Positions 8,395-18,143 of a DNA stretch of 24,268 nt are shown here, piece by piece. The stretch comes from Candidatus Thalassarchaeaceae archaeon (lineage in GTDB: Archaea; Thermoplasmatota; Poseidoniia; Poseidoniales; Thalassarchaeaceae), in NCBI GenBank assembly GCA_013330385.1, contig DUIL01000143.1, positions 642 to 24,909 on the forward strand. The letters run 5' to 3'. Within the stretch, counting starts at the first letter, position 1. Each line of letters begins with the position of its first letter. The translations under genes were made by a program, and so were the position numbers. Below the pieces are notes generated by a model that searched no databases, was not told the origin of the DNA, and was given only the letters and a program-made list of their open reading frames with translations.

Positions 8395-9348
8395 TCAGAT
8401 TAAATCACGATAGGTTTTCCATGCATCATTGTTGCACAAGTAAGTCAGCAACGACATTTGTGCCCACATTCTATTTTCAGCCTGATCTAGAATTATACTA
8501 TTTTTTGAATCAATAACGCCATCTGTGACTTCTTCTCCTCTATGTGCTGGAAGGCAGTGCATGAATGCATAATCTGGATGAGCGTGGGATACGAGTTCTT
8601 CATTAACCTGAAATCCTTCAAATGCAGCAAACTTGTCAGACATATGTTCCTCTCCCATAGAAACAAAAATATCTGTGTAAATGACTCCTGCGTCACTAAC
8701 GGCTTCCACTGGGTCGTTAGTGCCGGTGATACTAGCTCCATTCTGCTCGGCTATTTGCCTAGCACGTTGCATAACTTGTTCATTTGGTTCCATACCTAAG
8801 GGCGTGGCGTACTTCACATCGTGACCCATTGCAGCACTTGCTAGAACGAGATCATGAAACACATTGTTACCATCTCCAACCCATGAAATGTGACCTGGAG
8901 TTTTACCACGTTCGGTAATTGCCATCAAATCTGCAGCGGACTGACAGGGGTGATGTAAGTCCGATAATGCATTAATCACAGGAACCGTTGCCGTGCGAGC
9001 CAATTCAGTTACATCTGCGTGGCCGAAACAGCGGTAAGTAATTCCATCTAGATATCTAGAAAGTACTGCTGCAGTATCACCTATGGATTCGGATTTACCA
9101 AGTTGAATATCATTCTTTAGAAGTGTTAGTGGTTGCCCTCCTAATTTGTGTACACCTACCTCAAAAGATACTCTAGTTCTAGTTGATGGTTTTTCATATA
9201 TTGAGCCTATAGACATACCATCTAGTGGCTTGAAATCCTGATTAAATTCAGTATCGTTTTTGTATCGGATAGCCCATTCAATTATGTCAGGTAAATCATC
9301 GACTAAGTCATCAATGGCTAGTAAATCTCTTTTCTCAATGTCGCTCAT
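8395..9348 (-). CDS. argF: Ornithine carbamoyltransferase
   Basis: Motifs YEKPSTRTRVSFE, HPCQ, WVGDGNNV, DIFVSMG, MHCLPAHRGEEVT and QAENR. Start placed at ATG 9348 (MSDIEKRDLL), 9 nt after the RBS GGAG. Confidence 0.93.
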   Translation of the reverse strand: MSDIEKRDLLAIDDLVDDLPDIIEWAIRYKNDTEFNQDFKPLDGMSIGSIYEKPSTRTRVSFEVGVHKLGGQPLTLLKNDIQLGKSESIGDTAAVLSRYLDGITYRCFGHADVTELARTATVPVINALSDLHHPCQSAADLMAITERGKTPGHISWVGDGNNVFHDLVLASAAMGHDVKYATPLGMEPNEQVMQRARQIAEQNGASITGTNDPVEAVSDAGVIYTDIFVSMGEEHMSDKFAAFEGFQVNEELVSHAHPDYAFMHCLPAHRGEEVTDGVIDSKNSIILDQAENRMWAQMSLLTYLCNNDAWKTYRDLI

Positions 9349-10180
9349 GTTCAATATCTCCTGCAAATCCATCTCTGATGTCCGCCATGCCACCAAATAC
9401 TGTTTGTGCAAATGTCAACATATCAGCAAGCCCTTCTTCTTCTTCACTAGAAAGGGGGATTAATCCTGGTTGAATTGCAGCATGCTGCATCATCCGAAGC
9501 TGTCCTATTGCGAATTCTGCACGTGCCGTACCTTTTGTGTGATCCATTGATTCAGCAGCCGATTCTTCGTATAATGCCGCTTCGAGTACGTCAAGGTTAT
9601 CTCCCCACTCCAATATACGTGAGAGCACTTCTGGATCTAATAAATCGGCCTTGGAAAGGAAGTTTGCAGTAGGCAGCCCTAGTCTAAAATGCACTATCGA
9701 AGAAAGAAGCATTTGTGATACGAATCCACTGGGGGTTTGTGATAGCATAGGATCGAATAAGAATGCGAGACAAGCCCTTCCTTGACCAAGAACTTCAACT
9801 AGGTGACTGCTGGCTTCTCTGAACGCGAATAATTCAACTTGTCCCGGTGTGTCGATAACCAATATATCACCTGACAGGCCGTCAATCTCATCAAATACAT
9901 CCAATGCTTGTGCAGCAACTAAATCAGCGGCTAGAATTTGTGCTCCATTAGGTCCCAAATCATATTCATCCATGACATCCGAGAGTGACACTAAATCTCT
10001 AACATCAAATTCAGGGTCATAATGAACTCTTTCTGCCCCAGGATCAAGATTTATTGTTAATACATCAATCTGTAAAAACCGCGACCATCTTTGGAATGCA
10101 GTAACTAGAGTGCTCTTGCCAGCACCGGCAGTTCCAACAACGAAGATTACAGGCGGAGTAGTACCGTCTTGATTACTCAT
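9335..10180 (-). CDS. GPN-loop GTPase (XAB1/GPN family)
   Basis: G1 GTAGAGKST, NLDPG, signature LGPNG, G3 DTPGQVELF, G4 LSKAD. Likely start ATG 10180 (MSNQDG). The 3' end overlaps the argF start by 14 nt. Confidence 0.93.
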   Translation of the reverse strand: MSNQDGTTPPVIFVVGTAGAGKSTLVTAFQRWSRFLQIDVLTINLDPGAERVHYDPEFDVRDLVSLSDVMDEYDLGPNGAQILAADLVAAQALDVFDEIDGLSGDILVIDTPGQVELFAFREASSHLVEVLGQGRACLAFLFDPMLSQTPSGFVSQMLLSSIVHFRLGLPTANFLSKADLLDPEVLSRILEWGDNLDVLEAALYEESAAESMDHTKGTARAEFAIGQLRMMQHAAIQPGLIPLSSEEEEGLADMLTFAQTVFGGMADIRDGFAGDIEHERH

Positions 10181-10204
10181 GCTCAATCCTAATAGGTGGG
10201 GTAA

Positions 10205-10260
10205 TTCAACCATTCGCGAATCCATTCAGTCCCTTAGGACTGTAAGTGAGAATGGTTAAA
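10205..10260. promoter_or_regulatory. Back-to-back divergent promoter elements (imperfect 11-bp inverted repeat)
   Basis: TTCAACCATTC (10205-10215, read as GAATGGTTGAA on minus) and GAATGGTTAAA (10250-10260), 10/11 complementary. Each is oriented toward one of the two divergent genes. Confidence 0.5.
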
Positions 10261-10303
10261 CCATCCAAAGTCACGTCCGAGATTACTACCGAGGCCGTTA
10301 GAC

Positions 10304-13057
10304 ATGTCCGACCCACCTCCACTTCCCCCAGGGATGCCAACCCCTCCTCCCCCTCCTCCAGGCATGCCTCCTCCTCCTCCACCCCCAGGTTTCGAAAATA
10401 TTGAGGAAGAGGATGAGAATACAGAATTAGTTGAGAATGAATCTTTAATCGAAATTGAAGAAACCCCCCCTCTATCTATTCCCCCCCTCCCCCCCTTAGA
10501 GGTAGAGATTGCAGATAATGATGAATCAGAACTTGAAGAATCATCACTTAATGAAATAGAACCCGAAGAAGTCCACTCCTCTCCCCCTAGTATTGACTCT
10601 GAGATTCCAATACCCCCCCCTCCACCTGATTTTGACACCAACACACCTCTCCCTCCACTTCCTGTGATGGGAATAAAGGACGAGTCTGATGAGTCTGAAG
10701 AAGCCCTTGATTCGATATCATTGGAAGCCTCATTAGCTGCTTTTTCATCTACTGAATCCACTGATGATGTAGTTTGGCCAGAGCCTGAAGTTGAAACATT
10801 TTCCGAATCAATAAACGCCTTAGATGGCGTTTTTGAGGCTGATGGAGTGACTGATGTTGATTTTGCAGCAGCTATTGATGCATCTAGTAGAGAAGAAACA
10901 TCCTTGCCTCTTTCAATTAATTTACGTCCTGCTGTAGAAGTCGACTCAATCCCTGGTGACAAACTCTTTGTTACCCTGAAAGAGAAGGAAGAGGCAGTTC
11001 TCAATCCTGACGGTTCCGTCCGTCAACAAACTATTGATGGAGAGTTGATATTAAGGAATTCCAGCCGTAAAGATCGTGCTTGGGATATTGAAGTTAACTT
11101 GCAGAACACTGGAGCGACAGATATAGGCGGCGCTTCAATCAATGTAAGAGAATTAGATGCAACAGAATCGACTACACTTCCCTATACTGCCTCTGGCCCT
11201 AAGATGATGATTTTGCGAGAACATATTGATACGGAACCCGAACGCTCACAGGAACCTTCTCTTTCGATGGTATTTTCACCTGAATCCCAGGAAATTCTTA
11301 TTCGAATTAGCGTGGAAAATGTAGCTCCAGTTGCCCTTAATGACGTGGAAGTTCGTCGTGCTTTACCTGATAATTTTGATTTAACTGAAGGAGCCGAATA
11401 TGAGATTAAAGATTCGGAATTAGTTTGGAAGATAGGTAGACTTCCAGTTGGAGAGACTGCTACACTTTCTATAATCCCTAGGATTACTACTAGGAGCATA
11501 CAGCGTTTTGCAACTGGCGTTGTCCGTGCATCCTATGCTTGTGAAGCTACAGTTTCCCGTTCGCAATTCGATTCAGTCTCGTCTAGAGCCCGACAATTTG
11601 GTTATGTTAGCCCTAAGGAGGACGATAGACCTGATGTATTCCATTGTAAACTGGTTGTCGAGAATCGTTCCTCTTTCGTCGTCAGCCTTTCTGGAGCAAC
11701 GGTTTGGTTGGCAGGTCGCAGTGAACCATTCCTTGAGATGGAAGACCTCCGTGAAGATATACCCCCAGAGGGGCTATGGGATTCACTGGAAAAGCGTATA
11801 GAAACCATTGACAAACCTAATTTCACCCACGAAATTAATTATTCAATTCTTACTCGTGCTAATGTTGAATCATCAGGGGATTTAGAACTCAAGGAACGTA
11901 GTATCAAGGTACTTGATGCTTCAGTGAATAAACAGTACAGTATTAGCAGAATACGTTCATACGTCCCATCTAATCTTGATTGCACTATTATGGTTGAAAA
12001 CACAGGTTCAGCACCAATAAATGTAATACGTTTGTTAGATGATATACCTGGTATTTTCACACCTCCTTCGATTGAACAAATTCGTATTGAAATGGAAGGC
12101 ACCGACTTGAAGGATGACCAATTTAGAATAGAGGTTGTTGATGGTACTCAGTTGGAGGAGCAGTTGGTATCGCCTGATACTCAAGGGCATGCATTACGAA
12201 TTACAGTTGGAACCTCTGCTCCTTTAGGTCTTCAAGCGGGAAAATCCTTAGTTATCACTTATCCACTACACGCCGAAGACCCTTCTCCCTTGAATGATAG
12301 ATTGGGAGCCCCTGTCCGTACTGATTTTAGCATGGAGAGGTTTGGCCCTGTTGCTACTAGATATTGCAATAGATCGCCTCTAATTCGCGTAGTTCACCGT
12401 AGGCGTAGGTTCTCAACCGGGAAAGAGGTATTCCCCGCTGCAGGAGCTGGGCGATATGAAATTCTTTTGATGTTCCAAAACGATTCAGACAGTGCTCTTG
12501 ATGACCTTACTCTGCATGATGTAGTGCCTGGTACTTTCACAATTGAGCGTTCTACTGTTCGTTCTACATTATCCGGCGAGAGGGCTGTCGATTATAGTAA
12601 AGAATCAGCTCGTGAGGGTACTGCAGTAACGTGGCCAATTGGCCGAATTGAGAAGAATGAACGAATAGAGGTTGTCTTTGAAATTCAGGGTGATTCCGAA
12701 AGTGAGTACAAGGTTGCTGATGCCCAGGATTACCATGGTGCTACTTTCGGAGATGAAGTCGATGAAGAACCCAATTTGCCTGATTGGGTCGATGAAAATG
12801 CAAGAGGAATCCCTCCTATCATCCACGAGCCCATATCTGAACCAGAACCAGTTTTCGAAGAAGAACATGAACTTGAAATCGAGGAAGCAGAAGTCGATAT
12901 TAGTGAAGAAAGTCAAGTGGAATCTAAACCTTCTTTAGAAGTAGAATTGGATCCACAACCTACATTCGAGGCAGTTCCTGATATATGCCCCGTGTGTGGC
13001 ACTGAAGCTTCCATTGGGGCCTCTATGTGCGAAACATGTAGTTACCAATTTAATTGA
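10304..13057 (+). CDS. Polyproline/acidic N-terminus, multi-beta-sandwich protein (MHD-like plus DUF11-like domains), C-terminal zinc ribbon; no signal peptide
   Basis: aa1-30 MSDPPPLPPGMPTPPPPPPGMPPPPPPPGF; aa31-210 rich in D/E/P; beta-rich core aa221-800 with three V/F-[EQ]N-x(5-6)-D/N-x-x-[VL]...[LIV]P units; C-terminal CPVC-x10-CETC. Confidence 0.8.
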   Translation: MSDPPPLPPGMPTPPPPPPGMPPPPPPPGFENIEEEDENTELVENESLIEIEETPPLSIPPLPPLEVEIADNDESELEESSLNEIEPEEVHSSPPSIDSEIPIPPPPPDFDTNTPLPPLPVMGIKDESDESEEALDSISLEASLAAFSSTESTDDVVWPEPEVETFSESINALDGVFEADGVTDVDFAAAIDASSREETSLPLSINLRPAVEVDSIPGDKLFVTLKEKEEAVLNPDGSVRQQTIDGELILRNSSRKDRAWDIEVNLQNTGATDIGGASINVRELDATESTTLPYTASGPKMMILREHIDTEPERSQEPSLSMVFSPESQEILIRISVENVAPVALNDVEVRRALPDNFDLTEGAEYEIKDSELVWKIGRLPVGETATLSIIPRITTRSIQRFATGVVRASYACEATVSRSQFDSVSSRARQFGYVSPKEDDRPDVFHCKLVVENRSSFVVSLSGATVWLAGRSEPFLEMEDLREDIPPEGLWDSLEKRIETIDKPNFTHEINYSILTRANVESSGDLELKERSIKVLDASVNKQYSISRIRSYVPSNLDCTIMVENTGSAPINVIRLLDDIPGIFTPPSIEQIRIEMEGTDLKDDQFRIEVVDGTQLEEQLVSPDTQGHALRITVGTSAPLGLQAGKSLVITYPLHAEDPSPLNDRLGAPVRTDFSMERFGPVATRYCNRSPLIRVVHRRRRFSTGKEVFPAAGAGRYEILLMFQNDSDSALDDLTLHDVVPGTFTIERSTVRSTLSGERAVDYSKESAREGTAVTWPIGRIEKNERIEVVFEIQGDSESEYKVADAQDYHGATFGDEVDEEPNLPDWVDENARGIPPIIHEPISEPEPVFEEEHELEIEEAEVDISEESQVESKPSLEVELDPQPTFEAVPDICPVCGTEASIGASMCETCSYQFN

Positions 13058-13123: not shown

Positions 13124-14044
13124 ATGGCAGCGGCAGCAGGCAGTGGTGGTGCTCAAAATCAAGGCGCTGCTGGAATGATGACTCCAATGCTATTTCTGCT
13201 TGGAATCATGATGTTATTGATGTTTAATCCCGGGCTGAGAGATACACTTTCAGATCTAGCAGGAACTGTAATTGAACCCACGCTACCGTTCCATGAGCAG
13301 TACTTCGTACCTACAGTATTCATCATTGGTTCCTCAATCATGGCTGTTAACACAATCATCCGGTCATTTTTCATGGATCCACTCACTCAAACTCATTTTT
13401 CCCATCGTAATAAGCAGATTTCCAAACAGTTACGTGAGGCCCAAGTAGCTAGAGACACAGCACGTGTAGATAAAATGAGAAAATTACAGATGGAAATGAT
13501 GCCCGATCAGATGGCTATGCAATCAGCTATGATGAGGCCGATGATGTTCACTATGGTCTTCATTATTGCAATATTTAGTTGGATGGCGAACTCCGTAATC
13601 GAATTCAGAGTCGATTATGTCAGCGTACCATGGCAACCTATGTGGAGTATGAATGGAGTAATTATGTGGATTTTCCCAGCATGGGTTGCCACATATATCA
13701 CTATGAGCGCTCCTCTTGGTAGGATAATTGATCGCCATATCAAGATTTTACGATACGGCAGACATCCTTTGATACTTGCAGGTGACACAATACCCGAGCC
13801 ATTACTCCATCTTTTACAAGAAGAAAAGGCCAAGACTTCGAGCAAAACTCGTCATAGCCAGCGCAGAAGTAGAGACGGACCTAGGAAGACAGGTGATACG
13901 GGAAGCGAATCTAGACGAGGTGGAAACCAACATGTAGCGCCACCTAAAGCGGGTACTGCATGCCCAATTTGTTCTGCTACAATGGTCACTCGATCGAGTA
14001 AAGGCAAACTCCGATGCAGTATATGTCTAAATGAATGGAGGTGA
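13124..14044 (+). CDS. DUF106/EMC3-TMCO1 family (Oxa1 superfamily) membrane protein insertase with a C-terminal basic tail and Zn ribbon
   Basis: TM1, then a coiled-coil (RNKQISKQLREAQVARDTARVDKMRKLQMEMM), then Met-rich MRPMMFTMVFIIAIFSWM, VPW and a last TM (WIFPAWVATYITMSAPLGRII). Sits directly upstream of cmk-cbf5, as in the archaeal superoperon. Confidence 0.85.
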   Translation: MAAAAGSGGAQNQGAAGMMTPMLFLLGIMMLLMFNPGLRDTLSDLAGTVIEPTLPFHEQYFVPTVFIIGSSIMAVNTIIRSFFMDPLTQTHFSHRNKQISKQLREAQVARDTARVDKMRKLQMEMMPDQMAMQSAMMRPMMFTMVFIIAIFSWMANSVIEFRVDYVSVPWQPMWSMNGVIMWIFPAWVATYITMSAPLGRIIDRHIKILRYGRHPLILAGDTIPEPLLHLLQEEKAKTSSKTRHSQRRSRDGPRKTGDTGSESRRGGNQHVAPPKAGTACPICSATMVTRSSKGKLRCSICLNEWR

Positions 14045-15770: not shown

Positions 15771-18143
15771 TTACTTCTGTTTACGATAGGGCTTGCGAAC
15801 TCTCCCCGGTCCAAACTGTAGTGCGGCATAAGAAATAGCCATGATTCCAATGGCTCCTACAATTAATGCCGGTTTTCGATCTATTCCATTATCTCCATTA
15901 TTTCCATCTTCCCTTCCTTCTGAATCGATAGAGATAGATAACTCATTATTATCTTCATTTGTTTCTTCTATGGAGGCGGTTCCATCAACGACGGATTTGA
16001 TGACAATTTGTCCTGATGTGTCTATTCTTGTATCACATGTGGCCACACCTAGTCCCCCTGGTGCTAATGTATCGATTATGGTTGAGCCTACAAGTATTCC
16101 ATCAACCCAACATCTTACATCTAATGTGTTAGCAGTACCTCTCCCTTGATTGCGAACATAGACCTTAATTTCGACTATATCGCCTTCGTCAATACTATCT
16201 ACCGAAATGCCACTCTCCCAGATTTCTATATTTTCTATAATGAGGTCTGATTTGGCGGTTACTACAACTTCAATACTCTGTACTATGTCATTTGTTCCAT
16301 CACTAATGCTAATTTCTACTGTATGTACTCCAGCCTCAACAGGTGTTAGAATTAAATCACCAAACGAATCAAAAGTAGCCCATGAGCGTGATGTTGAGAT
16401 GGTCAAATCAGAGGTATCCGGGTCGGTGATTTCCAAATCAATAATCCTAGTAGTACCTAGCTCAACATAAGTAGAAACAGGGAGCCCAGATATGGATGGG
16501 GCATCTTCAACAGATTCTATGTTTACATTGAAGGAACCAGACCATGTATTTCCACTCTCATCAGATACAATGACTTCAATCTGTGTAGAACCACTAGCGT
16601 CTTTGATAGGCTGAATTCGTATGTCTCCATTGACGGTAGAGGCAGTGACTAGTTGGTCATCTCCAGTAAATGCTTGAACCTCCAAGTCTTCCCAATAGGT
16701 AAGGTCATCTTCACATCTACTAGCCATGGCAATGAGAGCTCCACCTCCGTCTTCAATCAAATTCATGGACTCAGGGGCTGAGCAGGTTACATTCAGGTCC
16801 CAAACTAGGTTATATCCACCAACGATAGACATAGAATCAATGTGTACTACTGTAGATTCAGGTGTCCCATCTGAAGACCATTGAAATCTCGTTGCGACAC
16901 CAACTTCCAGAGCATCTCCTGCACTGGGTAGTGCATGTCCTATAGGTACTTGGAAGCCAAATGAACCAACTGTGAGTGGCAAAGAATGTACCAAAGTATT
17001 CCCTATTGCGAATTTCACATCACTATAACTCCCAGCAAGGCCATCAACAGATCCTGCTATAGTTCCTGTAACTTCGAGATATGGATTATTTACATCAATA
17101 CGAACAGAATTAACACAGCCATCTTGAATCTCAATTCGTATATGTTGTAATGAGTCTGGATTCTCCAGAATATCACCCGAATAAACTTGAGAATAATCGC
17201 CATCAATATCGTCAGAAAGAACCCAAATTGTGTGATTTCCAGTTCCAAAAACATGTATCCTGCCTAATGATTGATCATATGGCACTGGGACATCAAAAGT
17301 CCAAATCCCATCTTCGTTTCCATCATTAGTTAGTCCACAATTTTCCACAGTTAGGTCTTGGGTATTGCCATCATAGGGTCCGTAATCAAGAACCGGAATT
17401 GGCAATCCTATTGTTGTGTGCAATGCTTTAACAGTTTCAAAAGAATACCAAGGTTGATGATATTTCACACGGATCCCAACTGCATCAACTCGGACTTCTG
17501 AATCATCAGGTGCTCCATCGGAGACATAATCTACCGTGATTGATGCAGCAGAGAGGTCATTCCAATTCCATTCCTGTAGATTATCCATTGAGATAACCAT
17601 TGGTGTGGTCATTCTATCCATCGGGCCAAATGTTCGTGCAATGGTGCGCACTAATCTCTGAGGTCCATTTGCTTCTATAGTAACTCTGATTTCATCTGAA
17701 GGAAGTGCATCAGGGACTTCTAAATGAAGAATCATTGAGACATTAGCGATGACTCGAGTGCTAAGTCCTGTAAATGAATATCCAGTGACTGTAATATCAG
17801 GTCCTTTTGACCACGTGTAATATCCATCGGGTTCTCCTAAAGATGAATTTGAATCAGTGGGGCTTGTTGATGCCCATGAGTTCACTGTTTGATAGTTAGA
17901 AGGTCTATCATGTGTGAACGATAGTTCTCCATCGGCTATCATTCCCTGACTATAATCTGCCAGATCATTGGTAAAGGTCTTTTTACTGCTAATATCCCAC
18001 ACATCTGGATTTGAAAAATCACCAGCATTCAGCAACTCTATTCGGTCAGATTCGATAACAACATCTGCTGAACTCAGAGGCGTGAGTAGAGCCAGCAAAC
18101 AAAGCACCACAATAGAGGAACTCACTGTATGCGCCCTGCTCAT
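15771..18143 (-). CDS. Cell-surface protein: signal peptide, beta-sandwich and cadherin/Ig-like domains, CARDB domain, C-terminal TM anchor
   Basis: N-terminal IVVLCLLALLTPLSSA. Ig-like VEDAPSISGLP...DLEITDPD. CARDB pattern SDLIIENI...VYVRNQG...LAPGG...VDGTASIEETNEDNN. C-terminal TM ALIVGAIGIMAISYAALQF with a basic tail. Confidence 0.8.
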   Translation of the reverse strand: MSRAHTVSSSIVVLCLLALLTPLSSADVVIESDRIELLNAGDFSNPDVWDISSKKTFTNDLADYSQGMIADGELSFTHDRPSNYQTVNSWASTSPTDSNSSLGEPDGYYTWSKGPDITVTGYSFTGLSTRVIANVSMILHLEVPDALPSDEIRVTIEANGPQRLVRTIARTFGPMDRMTTPMVISMDNLQEWNWNDLSAASITVDYVSDGAPDDSEVRVDAVGIRVKYHQPWYSFETVKALHTTIGLPIPVLDYGPYDGNTQDLTVENCGLTNDGNEDGIWTFDVPVPYDQSLGRIHVFGTGNHTIWVLSDDIDGDYSQVYSGDILENPDSLQHIRIEIQDGCVNSVRIDVNNPYLEVTGTIAGSVDGLAGSYSDVKFAIGNTLVHSLPLTVGSFGFQVPIGHALPSAGDALEVGVATRFQWSSDGTPESTVVHIDSMSIVGGYNLVWDLNVTCSAPESMNLIEDGGGALIAMASRCEDDLTYWEDLEVQAFTGDDQLVTASTVNGDIRIQPIKDASGSTQIEVIVSDESGNTWSGSFNVNIESVEDAPSISGLPVSTYVELGTTRIIDLEITDPDTSDLTISTSRSWATFDSFGDLILTPVEAGVHTVEISISDGTNDIVQSIEVVVTAKSDLIIENIEIWESGISVDSIDEGDIVEIKVYVRNQGRGTANTLDVRCWVDGILVGSTIIDTLAPGGLGVATCDTRIDTSGQIVIKSVVDGTASIEETNEDNNELSISIDSEGREDGNNGDNGIDRKPALIVGAIGIMAISYAALQFGPGRVRKPYRKQK

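Follow-up and report, generated by a model that had tools for sequence, protein, structure and literature searches.

The MHD Gene and Its Product

The window analyzed here is a stretch of 24,268 nucleotides from a Candidatus Thalassarchaeaceae archaeon (assembly GCA_013330385.1, contig DUIL01000143.1, positions 642 to 24,909 of the forward strand). It contains a gene (P0001, hereafter the MHD gene) flanked by a divergent gene for a GPN-loop GTPase and by a downstream gene for an insertase (Table 1). The mu-homology domain (MHD), after which the gene is named here, is the cargo- and partner-binding module of the adaptor protein (AP) complexes, COPI, TSET, the stonins, and the muniscins. The encoded protein very probably carries a homologue of this domain. 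A sequence-only reading of the window had proposed such a domain between residues 221 and 430, in a non-Asgard archaeon. Residue 221 indeed starts at nucleotide 10964 and residue 430 ends at nucleotide 11593, the four stretches quoted at the time are all present in the translation, and the closest named relatives of the protein (Ca. Thalassarchaeum, Thermoplasmatota, and “Euryarchaeota archaeon”) belong to Marine Group II (MGII). The accompanying description was correct too: the protein has a Pro-rich, probably disordered arm, additional beta-sandwiches, and a CxxC...CxxC ribbon at its C-terminus, and an Oxa1/EMC3-family gene lies downstream.

Table 1. Features of the MHD protein, of its neighbors, and of related loci (window coordinates unless a locus is named).
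Feature	Coordinates	Strand	Basis or remark
Whole MHD gene (P0001), 917 aa, stop included	10304..13057	+	Open reading frame (ORF) list and translation
N-terminal polyproline/acidic arm, aa 1-204, probably disordered, MGII-specific	10304..10915	+	Read from sequence
MHD-like unit, aa ~216-533	10949..11902	+	
MHD subdomain A, first part, aa 216-309, contains block i	10949..11230	+	Six strands in AlphaFold2 (AF2) model
MHD subdomain B, aa ~324-416, Pfam name DUF11/CLIPPER	11273..11551	+	DUF11 match and family profile alignment
Post-subdomain-B strands, aa 421-454 and aa 507-531, with a ~50-aa excursion between	11564..11896	+	Superposition on mu2 C-terminal strands
Third beta-sandwich, aa 538-698, CnaA/pilin/CLIPPER-like	11915..12397	+	
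Fourth beta-sandwich, aa 703-795, DUF11-like	12410..12688	+	Strands at model residues 499-591
Acidic linker, aa ~816-894	12749..12985	+	Read from sequence
C-terminal C4 zinc ribbon, aa 895-917, CPVC-x10-CETC	12986..13054	+	Sequence; weak DZR/rubredoxin-like Pfam matches
GPN-loop GTPase, divergent neighbor, partnership not implied	9335..10225	-	PF03029, E 1e-52
Oxa1/EMC3-family insertase, downstream neighbor, basic tail and C4 zinc ribbon, partnership not implied	13124..14044	+	PF01956, E 1e-14
Signal peptidase/RqcH arrangement around the MHD-family gene	L031:5937-7082 and L031:9179-11449	+	L032-L036 likewise
Arf/Ras-family GTPase genes near Asgard members	L016:7791-8306; L013:11127-12188	-	

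Sequence Evidence for the MHD

To collect the family, 1.8 billion cluster representatives were searched exhaustively (E <=1e-3), and 376 proteins matched, many of them 580-750 aa long and aligned across the entire 596-residue query. The alignments built comprise 80 diverse sequences over the first 260 residues of the core (A1), 57 sequences over the whole core (A2), and subdomain A alone (A4). When the A1 profile was compared with all PDB sequences, 36 matches were obtained and every one of them is adaptor-related: AP-3 mu (E 2e-5), AP-2 mu (6e-4), AP-1 mu (5e-3), delta-COP (1e-2), and AP-4 mu (2e-2), with the gamma-adaptin ears weaker; the solved CLIPPER chain was not found in this search at E up to 10.

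Four sequence blocks resembling those of eukaryotic MHDs had been the basis of the original domain call, and they exceed chance. Blocks ii-iv fall in the stretch of the family profile (positions 124-232) that aligns to the AP-3, AP-2, and AP-1 mu chains and to delta-COP (E 2e-5 to 1e-2); subdomain B is matched there to subdomain B of the mu3, mu2, mu1, and delta-COP chains. Block i belongs to subdomain A; with the A4 profile, the best match in the whole PDB is the MHD of yeast delta-COP at residues 6-44, right where that domain begins (E 0.011), and the same stretch matches AP-4 mu and delta-COP in the A1 search. In the first hairpin, a conserved Glu and a conserved Gly line up with those of the AP mu and delta-COP MHDs, and E227, G246, N252, W260, Y294, and E306 of subdomain A are conserved in at least 80% of the family. 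The caution that blocks ii and iii also fit plain DUF11 was justified as well, since DUF11 (PF01345, now named CLIPPER) matches residues 330-425 of the MGII protein with an E-value of 1.5e-9.

Pfam models were also run on the 80 A1 members: PF00928, the model of the AP mu and delta-COP MHDs, matches 47 (E up to 0.1, best 1.6e-11), muHD matches seven, and DUF11 matches 63. In the MGII protein, residues 219-390 correspond to positions 13-194 of the 259 of PF00928 in one collinear, sub-threshold stretch. Among ten Asgard-type members, P0158 exceeds the Pfam cut-off of 31.6 bits (35.2 bits) and P0205 lies just under it (31.1 bits). A PF00928 scan of 151 Poseidoniia genomes produced 20 weak matches, none of them above the cut-off and several in unrelated frames, and a phmmer search of the PDB with the single sequence returned noise only. 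Detecting the MHD signal thus takes a profile, and PF00928 by itself fails to recognize the MGII proteins.

Predicted Fold and Domain Topology

The AF2 models are confident both for the MHD unit (A1; pLDDT 94.5, pTM 0.85) and for the full core (pLDDT 93.7, pTM 0.79). The unit has the elongated all-beta fold of two sandwich subdomains. The best 50 Foldseek matches in the PDB are all MHDs (mu2, mu1, mu3, mu4, and delta-COP), with E-values of ~1e-7, 226-289 aligned columns, and TM-scores of 0.51-0.67. Structure comparison with the other MHD families gave 13.2 for mu4, 12.7 for mu3, 11.9 for delta-COP, 11.7 for SGIP1, and 11.2 for both mu1 and Syp1, and the rigid two-subdomain superposition spans 204-222 residues in all seven MHD families. 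Single-Ig structures such as the alpha2-macroglobulin receptor-binding domain or CLIPPER (9ifr) cover model residues 94-210 only. Among the AFDB clusters, eukaryotic MHD proteins reach TM-scores of 0.55-0.61 and serial DUF11 proteins 0.25-0.35, the latter with a root-mean-square deviation above 15 Å. An independent ESM Atlas model matches AP-3 mu with a TM-score of 0.70.

Residues 12-259 of the 261-residue model align to mu2 168-418, and in the full-core model the alignment continues to model residue 327, equivalent to mu2 435. The mu2 segment 394-435 superposes collinearly on model residues 217-257 and 303-327, both located after subdomain B, and the strands that return after this subdomain have a pLDDT of 93-96 even in the 261-residue model. 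From the collinear rigid superposition and the confidence of these strands we infer that they pair with subdomain A, so that subdomain B would be nested in it. In the model, the MHD unit thus ends near residue 533, and its last strands are preceded by an excursion of ~50 residues; the unit proposed at residues 221-430 is present, although larger than was thought. Independent serial Ig domains lacking any mu profile match had been named as the outcome that would speak against the domain call; an MHD-type superposition and an AP-3 mu match at E 2e-5 were found instead. The region is an MHD-type fold and not a plain string of DUF11 domains, with a reciprocal, though modest, sequence signal.

Remaining Parts of the Protein

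The fourth sandwich has its own conserved positions across the family (K707, N726, D739, P742, F745, W777, and Y792), and its equivalent in the homologue P0234 is recognized as DUF11 at residues 499-581 (E 5e-16). As regards an isopeptide bond in this last sandwich, K707 and D739 are spaced like the Lys and Asp of CLIPPER (PDB 9ifr), but the matching Asn was not found.

The ends of the protein vary between lineages. The N-terminal arm of MGII homologues contains PPxPPG-type repeats, while Asgard homologues are without them or have other N-terminal domains. Conservation of the acidic linker is limited to MGII, and the zinc ribbon is shared by the majority of MGII homologues and by a few from Asgard lineages. 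In place of the Pro-rich arm, other lineages have a ~100-aa N-terminal domain, HEAT repeats, a helical C-terminal domain, or a zinc ribbon. HEAT-like repeats are fused ahead of the MHD core in some Asgard members, one of which, from Thorarchaeota, is named “HEAT repeat domain-containing protein”, and the conserved N-terminal domain of ~100 aa is common to many others (the N-termini concerned are those of P0222/P0323, P0165, P0191, P0267, and P0268). In several MGII members the zinc ribbon is preceded by an EF-hand-like loop (D-x-D-x-N-G-Y-L-x2-x-E-L; C-termini of P0124 and P0126-P0128), a loop that is absent from the 917-aa protein. The layout of Pro-rich arm plus MHD, which had been likened to stonins and SGIP1, is confined to MGII and is not shared by the Asgard relatives, which are MHD-first or begin with other domains.

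No signal peptide or transmembrane segment was found in 57 family members, in which no 19-residue window has a mean hydropathy above 1.7 (the highest mean in the MGII protein itself is 1.01). Because of this, the MHD-family proteins are predicted to be soluble and cytoplasmic.

Distribution, Phylogeny, and Previous Reports

The A1 profile was searched over 301 Thermoplasmatota genomes and full-length copies were counted per family. The gene occurs as one full-length copy per genome in 58 of 63 MGII genomes, that is, 19/21 of the source's own family (f1, MGIIb) and 39/42 of MGIIa (f2). The same is true of 23/24 genomes of a second Thermoplasmatota family (f19, genomes of 1.3-3.6 Mb) and of one of two genomes of f11. 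Full-length copies are absent from f3, of the same class (0/8), and from f6 (0/36), and the remaining matches in Thermoplasmatota genomes are DUF11-only pieces of large proteins. The named members outside Thermoplasmatota are all Asgard (Njord-, Prometh-, Thor-, Hel-, and Hodarchaeota). Asgard archaea in culture (Promethearchaeum, Lokiarchaeum) also possess family members. The homologue distribution, which had been proposed as a check of the domain call, is thus broad in MGII, in f19, and in many Asgard lineages.

A quick maximum-likelihood tree of 65 cores recovers the MGII clade with an SH-aLRT support of 100 and the f19/f11 clade with 99, both joined at 95 together with three other rows; being unrooted, it does not tell in which direction the family descended. 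All Asgard-labeled rows but the Njord one (P0170) lie across the midpoint root from Thermoplasmatota; P0170 and P0144 stand beside the Thermoplasmatota clan, to which a branch of weak support (23) joins them. We regard the core as an old archaeal family, which MGII has in common with many Asgard lineages and with one or more further families of Thermoplasmatota.

Part of this family has been reported before. In an Asgard-only survey based on Pfam matches and without a structural test, candidates for the AP mu C-terminal domain were listed as “Adap_comp_sub (PF00928)”, with 44 PF00928 mentions in Supplementary Table S3, a sparse distribution, and no fusion to a longin domain (Eme et al., 2023, Nature 618:992, PMC10307638). 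The Jord-, Hel-, Hermod-, and Lokiarchaeales entries of that table that were compared carry the motifs of the present family (N-x-S-x3-R-I/L-W-D, E-x-I-D-T, W-x-I-x2-L-x-P, and P-x2-W-x-C-x3-F-x-N-x-S-E-F), and the start of the entry Lokiarchaeales_B53_G9 has the same residues as the N-terminal extension of the family member P0262. The Asgard candidates and the MGII protein belong to the same protein family. None of the literature searched describes an MHD from MGII or from another non-Asgard archaeon. The non-Asgard occurrence and the structural confirmation are consequently new, while the Asgard members were already known from Eme et al. (2023).

Genomic Context and RNA Coverage

In both MGIIa and MGIIb the gene order is UbiA, ATCase, GPN-loop GTPase (all three on the opposite side), MHD gene, Oxa1/EMC3-like insertase, CMP kinase, and Cbf5. 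This order is retained at 37-46% identity of the core, and the MGIIa and MGIIb orthologues in conserved synteny are 37-85% identical. The GPN-loop GTPase is adjacent in all six MGII loci examined, and the insertase, which starts 66 nt downstream of the MHD gene, follows in five, the sixth ending before the position of the insertase. The adjacency of the insertase is conserved across MGII, but as order-wide synteny within a long housekeeping block; it is not retained in other lineages and may carry no functional meaning.

The K/R/S-rich tail of the insertase ends in a C4 zinc ribbon (CPxC-x14-CxxC-x3-W) that does not vary among five orthologues from MGIIa and MGIIb, and both adjacent genes, MHD and insertase, therefore end in a zinc ribbon. 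The ORF of the CMP kinase overlaps that of the insertase by 14 nt (14031-14044), and cbf5 begins one base past the kinase stop; these three genes look more tightly coupled mutually than with the MHD gene. A gene for a 790-aa CARDB-domain protein (15771-18143, reverse strand) is convergent to cbf5 and holds the same position in five of the six MGII loci (31-66% identity), the sixth (L026) ending earlier.

Other lineages have other neighbors. In six loci of f19 and f11, the MHD-family gene lies between a convergent gene for a Sec11-type signal peptidase I and a divergent gene for the ribosome-rescue factor RqcH/NFACT. SGSM, HR, and GDNN motifs and two transmembrane segments mark the peptidase (TIGR02228 E 7e-9, below the cut-off), RqcH scores 401.7 bits against NF041120 (cut-off 400), and the arrangement persists down to 29% RqcH identity. 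The Asgard loci, and three others besides, have no neighbor in common. In one Helarchaeota locus (L016) the member adjoins a gene for a small GTPase of the Arf/Ras family, and in one Promethearchaeota locus (L013) such a gene lies two genes off, which makes two of five Asgard places; small GTPases make up ~2% of the genes in Asgard genomes (PMC10307638), so this proximity is weak and may be due to chance. Actin genes are found nearby in contigs of Hel- and Thorarchaeota.

In four metatranscriptome libraries, contigs of at least 99% identity cover most of the MHD gene at a depth like that of its neighbors, with DNA carry-over being possible. No contig of the RNA-library assemblies bridges the MHD gene and the insertase, and none in any of the four covers 10285-10501, the polyproline-coding start, which is probably an assembly effect of low-complexity sequence. 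This coverage does not prove transcription, and no operon is claimed.

Interpretation and Rival Explanations

The most likely role of the protein is that of a putative protein–protein interaction scaffold. Its rigid core of ~600 residues starts with what is very probably a genuine homologue of the eukaryotic MHD, in which subdomain A would be interrupted by the DUF11/CLIPPER-like subdomain B and the strands past B superpose on the C-terminal strands of mu2; it goes on with two more Ig-like beta-sandwiches. To this core MGII has added the polyproline/acidic arm in front and the acidic linker and zinc ribbon behind. A short motif or a partner domain may be what the MHD-like platform binds, and the ends that differ by lineage (polyproline arm, zinc ribbon, Asgard HEAT repeats, or helical domains) may connect the core to other components. 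A conserved rigid core with lineage-variable ends would be expected of a scaffold that binds a motif or partner. The parts of this proposal are not equally firm: the identity of the domain as an MHD is very probable, the scaffold mechanism is put forward tentatively and may well prove different, and the statement as a whole, a genuine MHD homologue acting in the cytoplasm as a motif-binding scaffold, we consider reasonably probable.

Several observations weigh against it. The MGII protein's own PF00928 score (19.9-22.7 bits) is below the Pfam cut-off, and the family signal resides mostly in subdomain B, where DUF11 outscores PF00928; part of the MHD similarity may therefore reflect the general kinship of Ig-like domains, and it was for this reason that subdomain A was searched alone. 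The interleaved topology rests on superposition, the strand pairing being deduced from it and not seen in coordinates. Subdomain B is acidic (isoelectric point 4.8), and gene neighborhoods vary between lineages. Taken to its end, the argument from Ig kinship would make the resemblance convergent or generic, two or three DUF11/CLIPPER Ig domains being packed into a cytoplasmic array with no specific ancestry in common with the eukaryotic MHD. The DUF11-type strand motif “h-x-h-x-N-x-G/S” present in each sandwich (N252, N339, N454, N566, and N726) and the gamma-adaptin ears among the weaker A1 matches are in line with this possibility, as is the higher DUF11 score of subdomain B. It is nevertheless quite improbable, given that the family profile finds the mu and delta-COP chains and not the CLIPPER chain, that subdomain A alone finds delta-COP at a collinear position, and that the two-subdomain superposition holds over seven MHD families while serial DUF11 proteins stay at low TM-scores. 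A related idea, suggested by the DUF11/CLIPPER and pilin-like domains, is that the protein is adhesin-like and either secreted or displayed on the surface, its export needing no classical signal. This is hardly credible for a family without signal peptides or transmembrane segments and with a single-copy, housekeeping-like distribution, whose core is compact and globular (pTM 0.79) and not a stalk; the C-terminal zinc ribbon speaks against a surface adhesin too.

With the MHD accepted as very probable, its employment remains to be weighed. The sequence-only reading had proposed a cargo adaptor or coat-like protein, part of a eukaryote-like trafficking module, which would sort membrane cargo into buds or vesicles in MGII as AP mu, delta-COP, and the muniscins do. 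The fold and the homology favor such a role, the disordered Pro-rich arm recalls stonins and SGIP1, and the Arf-family genes near two Asgard members could be added, weak as they are. The genomes, on the contrary, argue against it: Adaptin_N (PF01602) was found in none of five MGII genomes, four of which are 91-97% complete, and nothing of the Arf family (PF00025) scored above the cut-off in the same five. The search for Clat_adaptor_s (PF01217, sigma/longin) was also empty in them, but it was silent in every control genome and is therefore uninformative. No longin domain (Clat_adaptor_s) was matched ahead of the MHD, where the residues are polyproline/acidic. The mu2 chain has a basic lipid-binding face, and subdomain B is without a basic patch; to our knowledge, internal vesicles have not been described in MGII. 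The protein thus has neither the fused longin domain nor, among those looked for, the partner subunits and Arf GTPase that accompany a medium subunit of AP, COPI, or TSET, and we infer that it is not part of an AP/COPI-type heterotetramer in MGII. A coat function in MGII is accordingly very improbable, and this proposal is the part of the sequence-only reading that is not supported.

A different employment would place the protein with the membrane- or secreted-protein machinery at the ribosome–membrane interface, for instance as a receptor or organizer near the insertase or translocon, with no relation to vesicle traffic. The insertase followed by CMP kinase and Cbf5 in MGIIa and MGIIb, and the Sec11-type peptidase and RqcH in six loci of two other Thermoplasmatota families, bring two different export or insertion genes beside the family in two lineages, which is unlikely to be chance, even if the pattern was noticed post hoc. 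It is missing, however, from the Asgard loci and the three further loci, and the MGII block is a long run of syntenic housekeeping genes. A complex prediction of the core (aa 205-820) with the downstream insertase scored 0.00, without controls, and is neither for nor against binding. We regard this role as unlikely, although less so than the coat function, and the peptidase, insertase, and RqcH neighbors as a post-hoc lead toward membrane-protein biogenesis. The scaffold is the reading retained here.

Comparison with Known Systems

The nearest comparison is with the Asgard Adap_comp_sub candidates, which, like the MGII protein, have an MHD without longin fusion. They were described as sparse (PMC10307638), whereas the gene is near-universal and single-copy in MGII and f19, and the MGII form has in addition the polyproline/acidic arm and the zinc ribbon. 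The mu chains of AP-1 to AP-4 and COPI delta (PF00928) give reciprocal profile matches with the archaeal family and share the aligned Glu and Gly of the first hairpin. The identity is, however, 10-16%, and the MGII protein differs in the absence of a longin domain, in the ~50-residue excursion before the last strands, in an acidic subdomain B, and in the two extra sandwiches behind; none of the partner subunits looked for was found in MGII. In comparison with the MHDs of muniscins and stonins (SGIP1, FCHo, Syp1; PF10291), the MGII protein is without an F-BAR or other membrane-binding module, and its Pro-rich arm is lineage-specific in the archaeal family, being missing in the Asgard relatives. 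CLIPPER domains (PF01345; PDB 9ifr) form tandem stalks of secreted adhesins, many of them with an isopeptide bond. The MGII family has neither the signal or anchor nor the tandem independent repeats of such surface stalks; its domains are predicted to be cytoplasmic and packed into a compact body, one of them nested in the MHD according to the model.

Significance

How vesicle coats arose is an open question to which the origin of the MHD belongs, and in the literature searched the domain is listed in archaea only as a sparse Asgard “eukaryotic signature” (PMC10307638). Its near-universal presence in an order outside Asgard and in one further Thermoplasmatota family, while the coat partners searched for were not found in MGII, means that the MHD module does not mark Asgard-type cell complexity and that it had, or has, a function independent of coats. 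Furthermore, subdomain B connects the MHD with prokaryotic Ig domains of the DUF11/CLIPPER type, and this link provides a concrete hypothesis for the construction of the domain: subdomain B scores against both DUF11 and PF00928, and the family therefore looks like a bridge from DUF11/CLIPPER to the eukaryotic MHD. One may speculate, with slightly less confidence than is placed in the scaffold mechanism, that the eukaryotic MHD arose neither in eukaryotes nor in Asgard archaea but descends from an older archaeal family of cytoplasmic DUF11/CLIPPER-type Ig proteins, which would still serve as a housekeeping motif-binding hub in MGII and other Thermoplasmatota. Because of the insertase, signal peptidase, and RqcH neighbors, its ancestral job might lie at the ribosome–membrane interface. 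If this were true, the cargo-binding module of adaptors would be older than any vesicle coat, and the idea could be tested in abundant ocean archaea and in cultured Asgard archaea.

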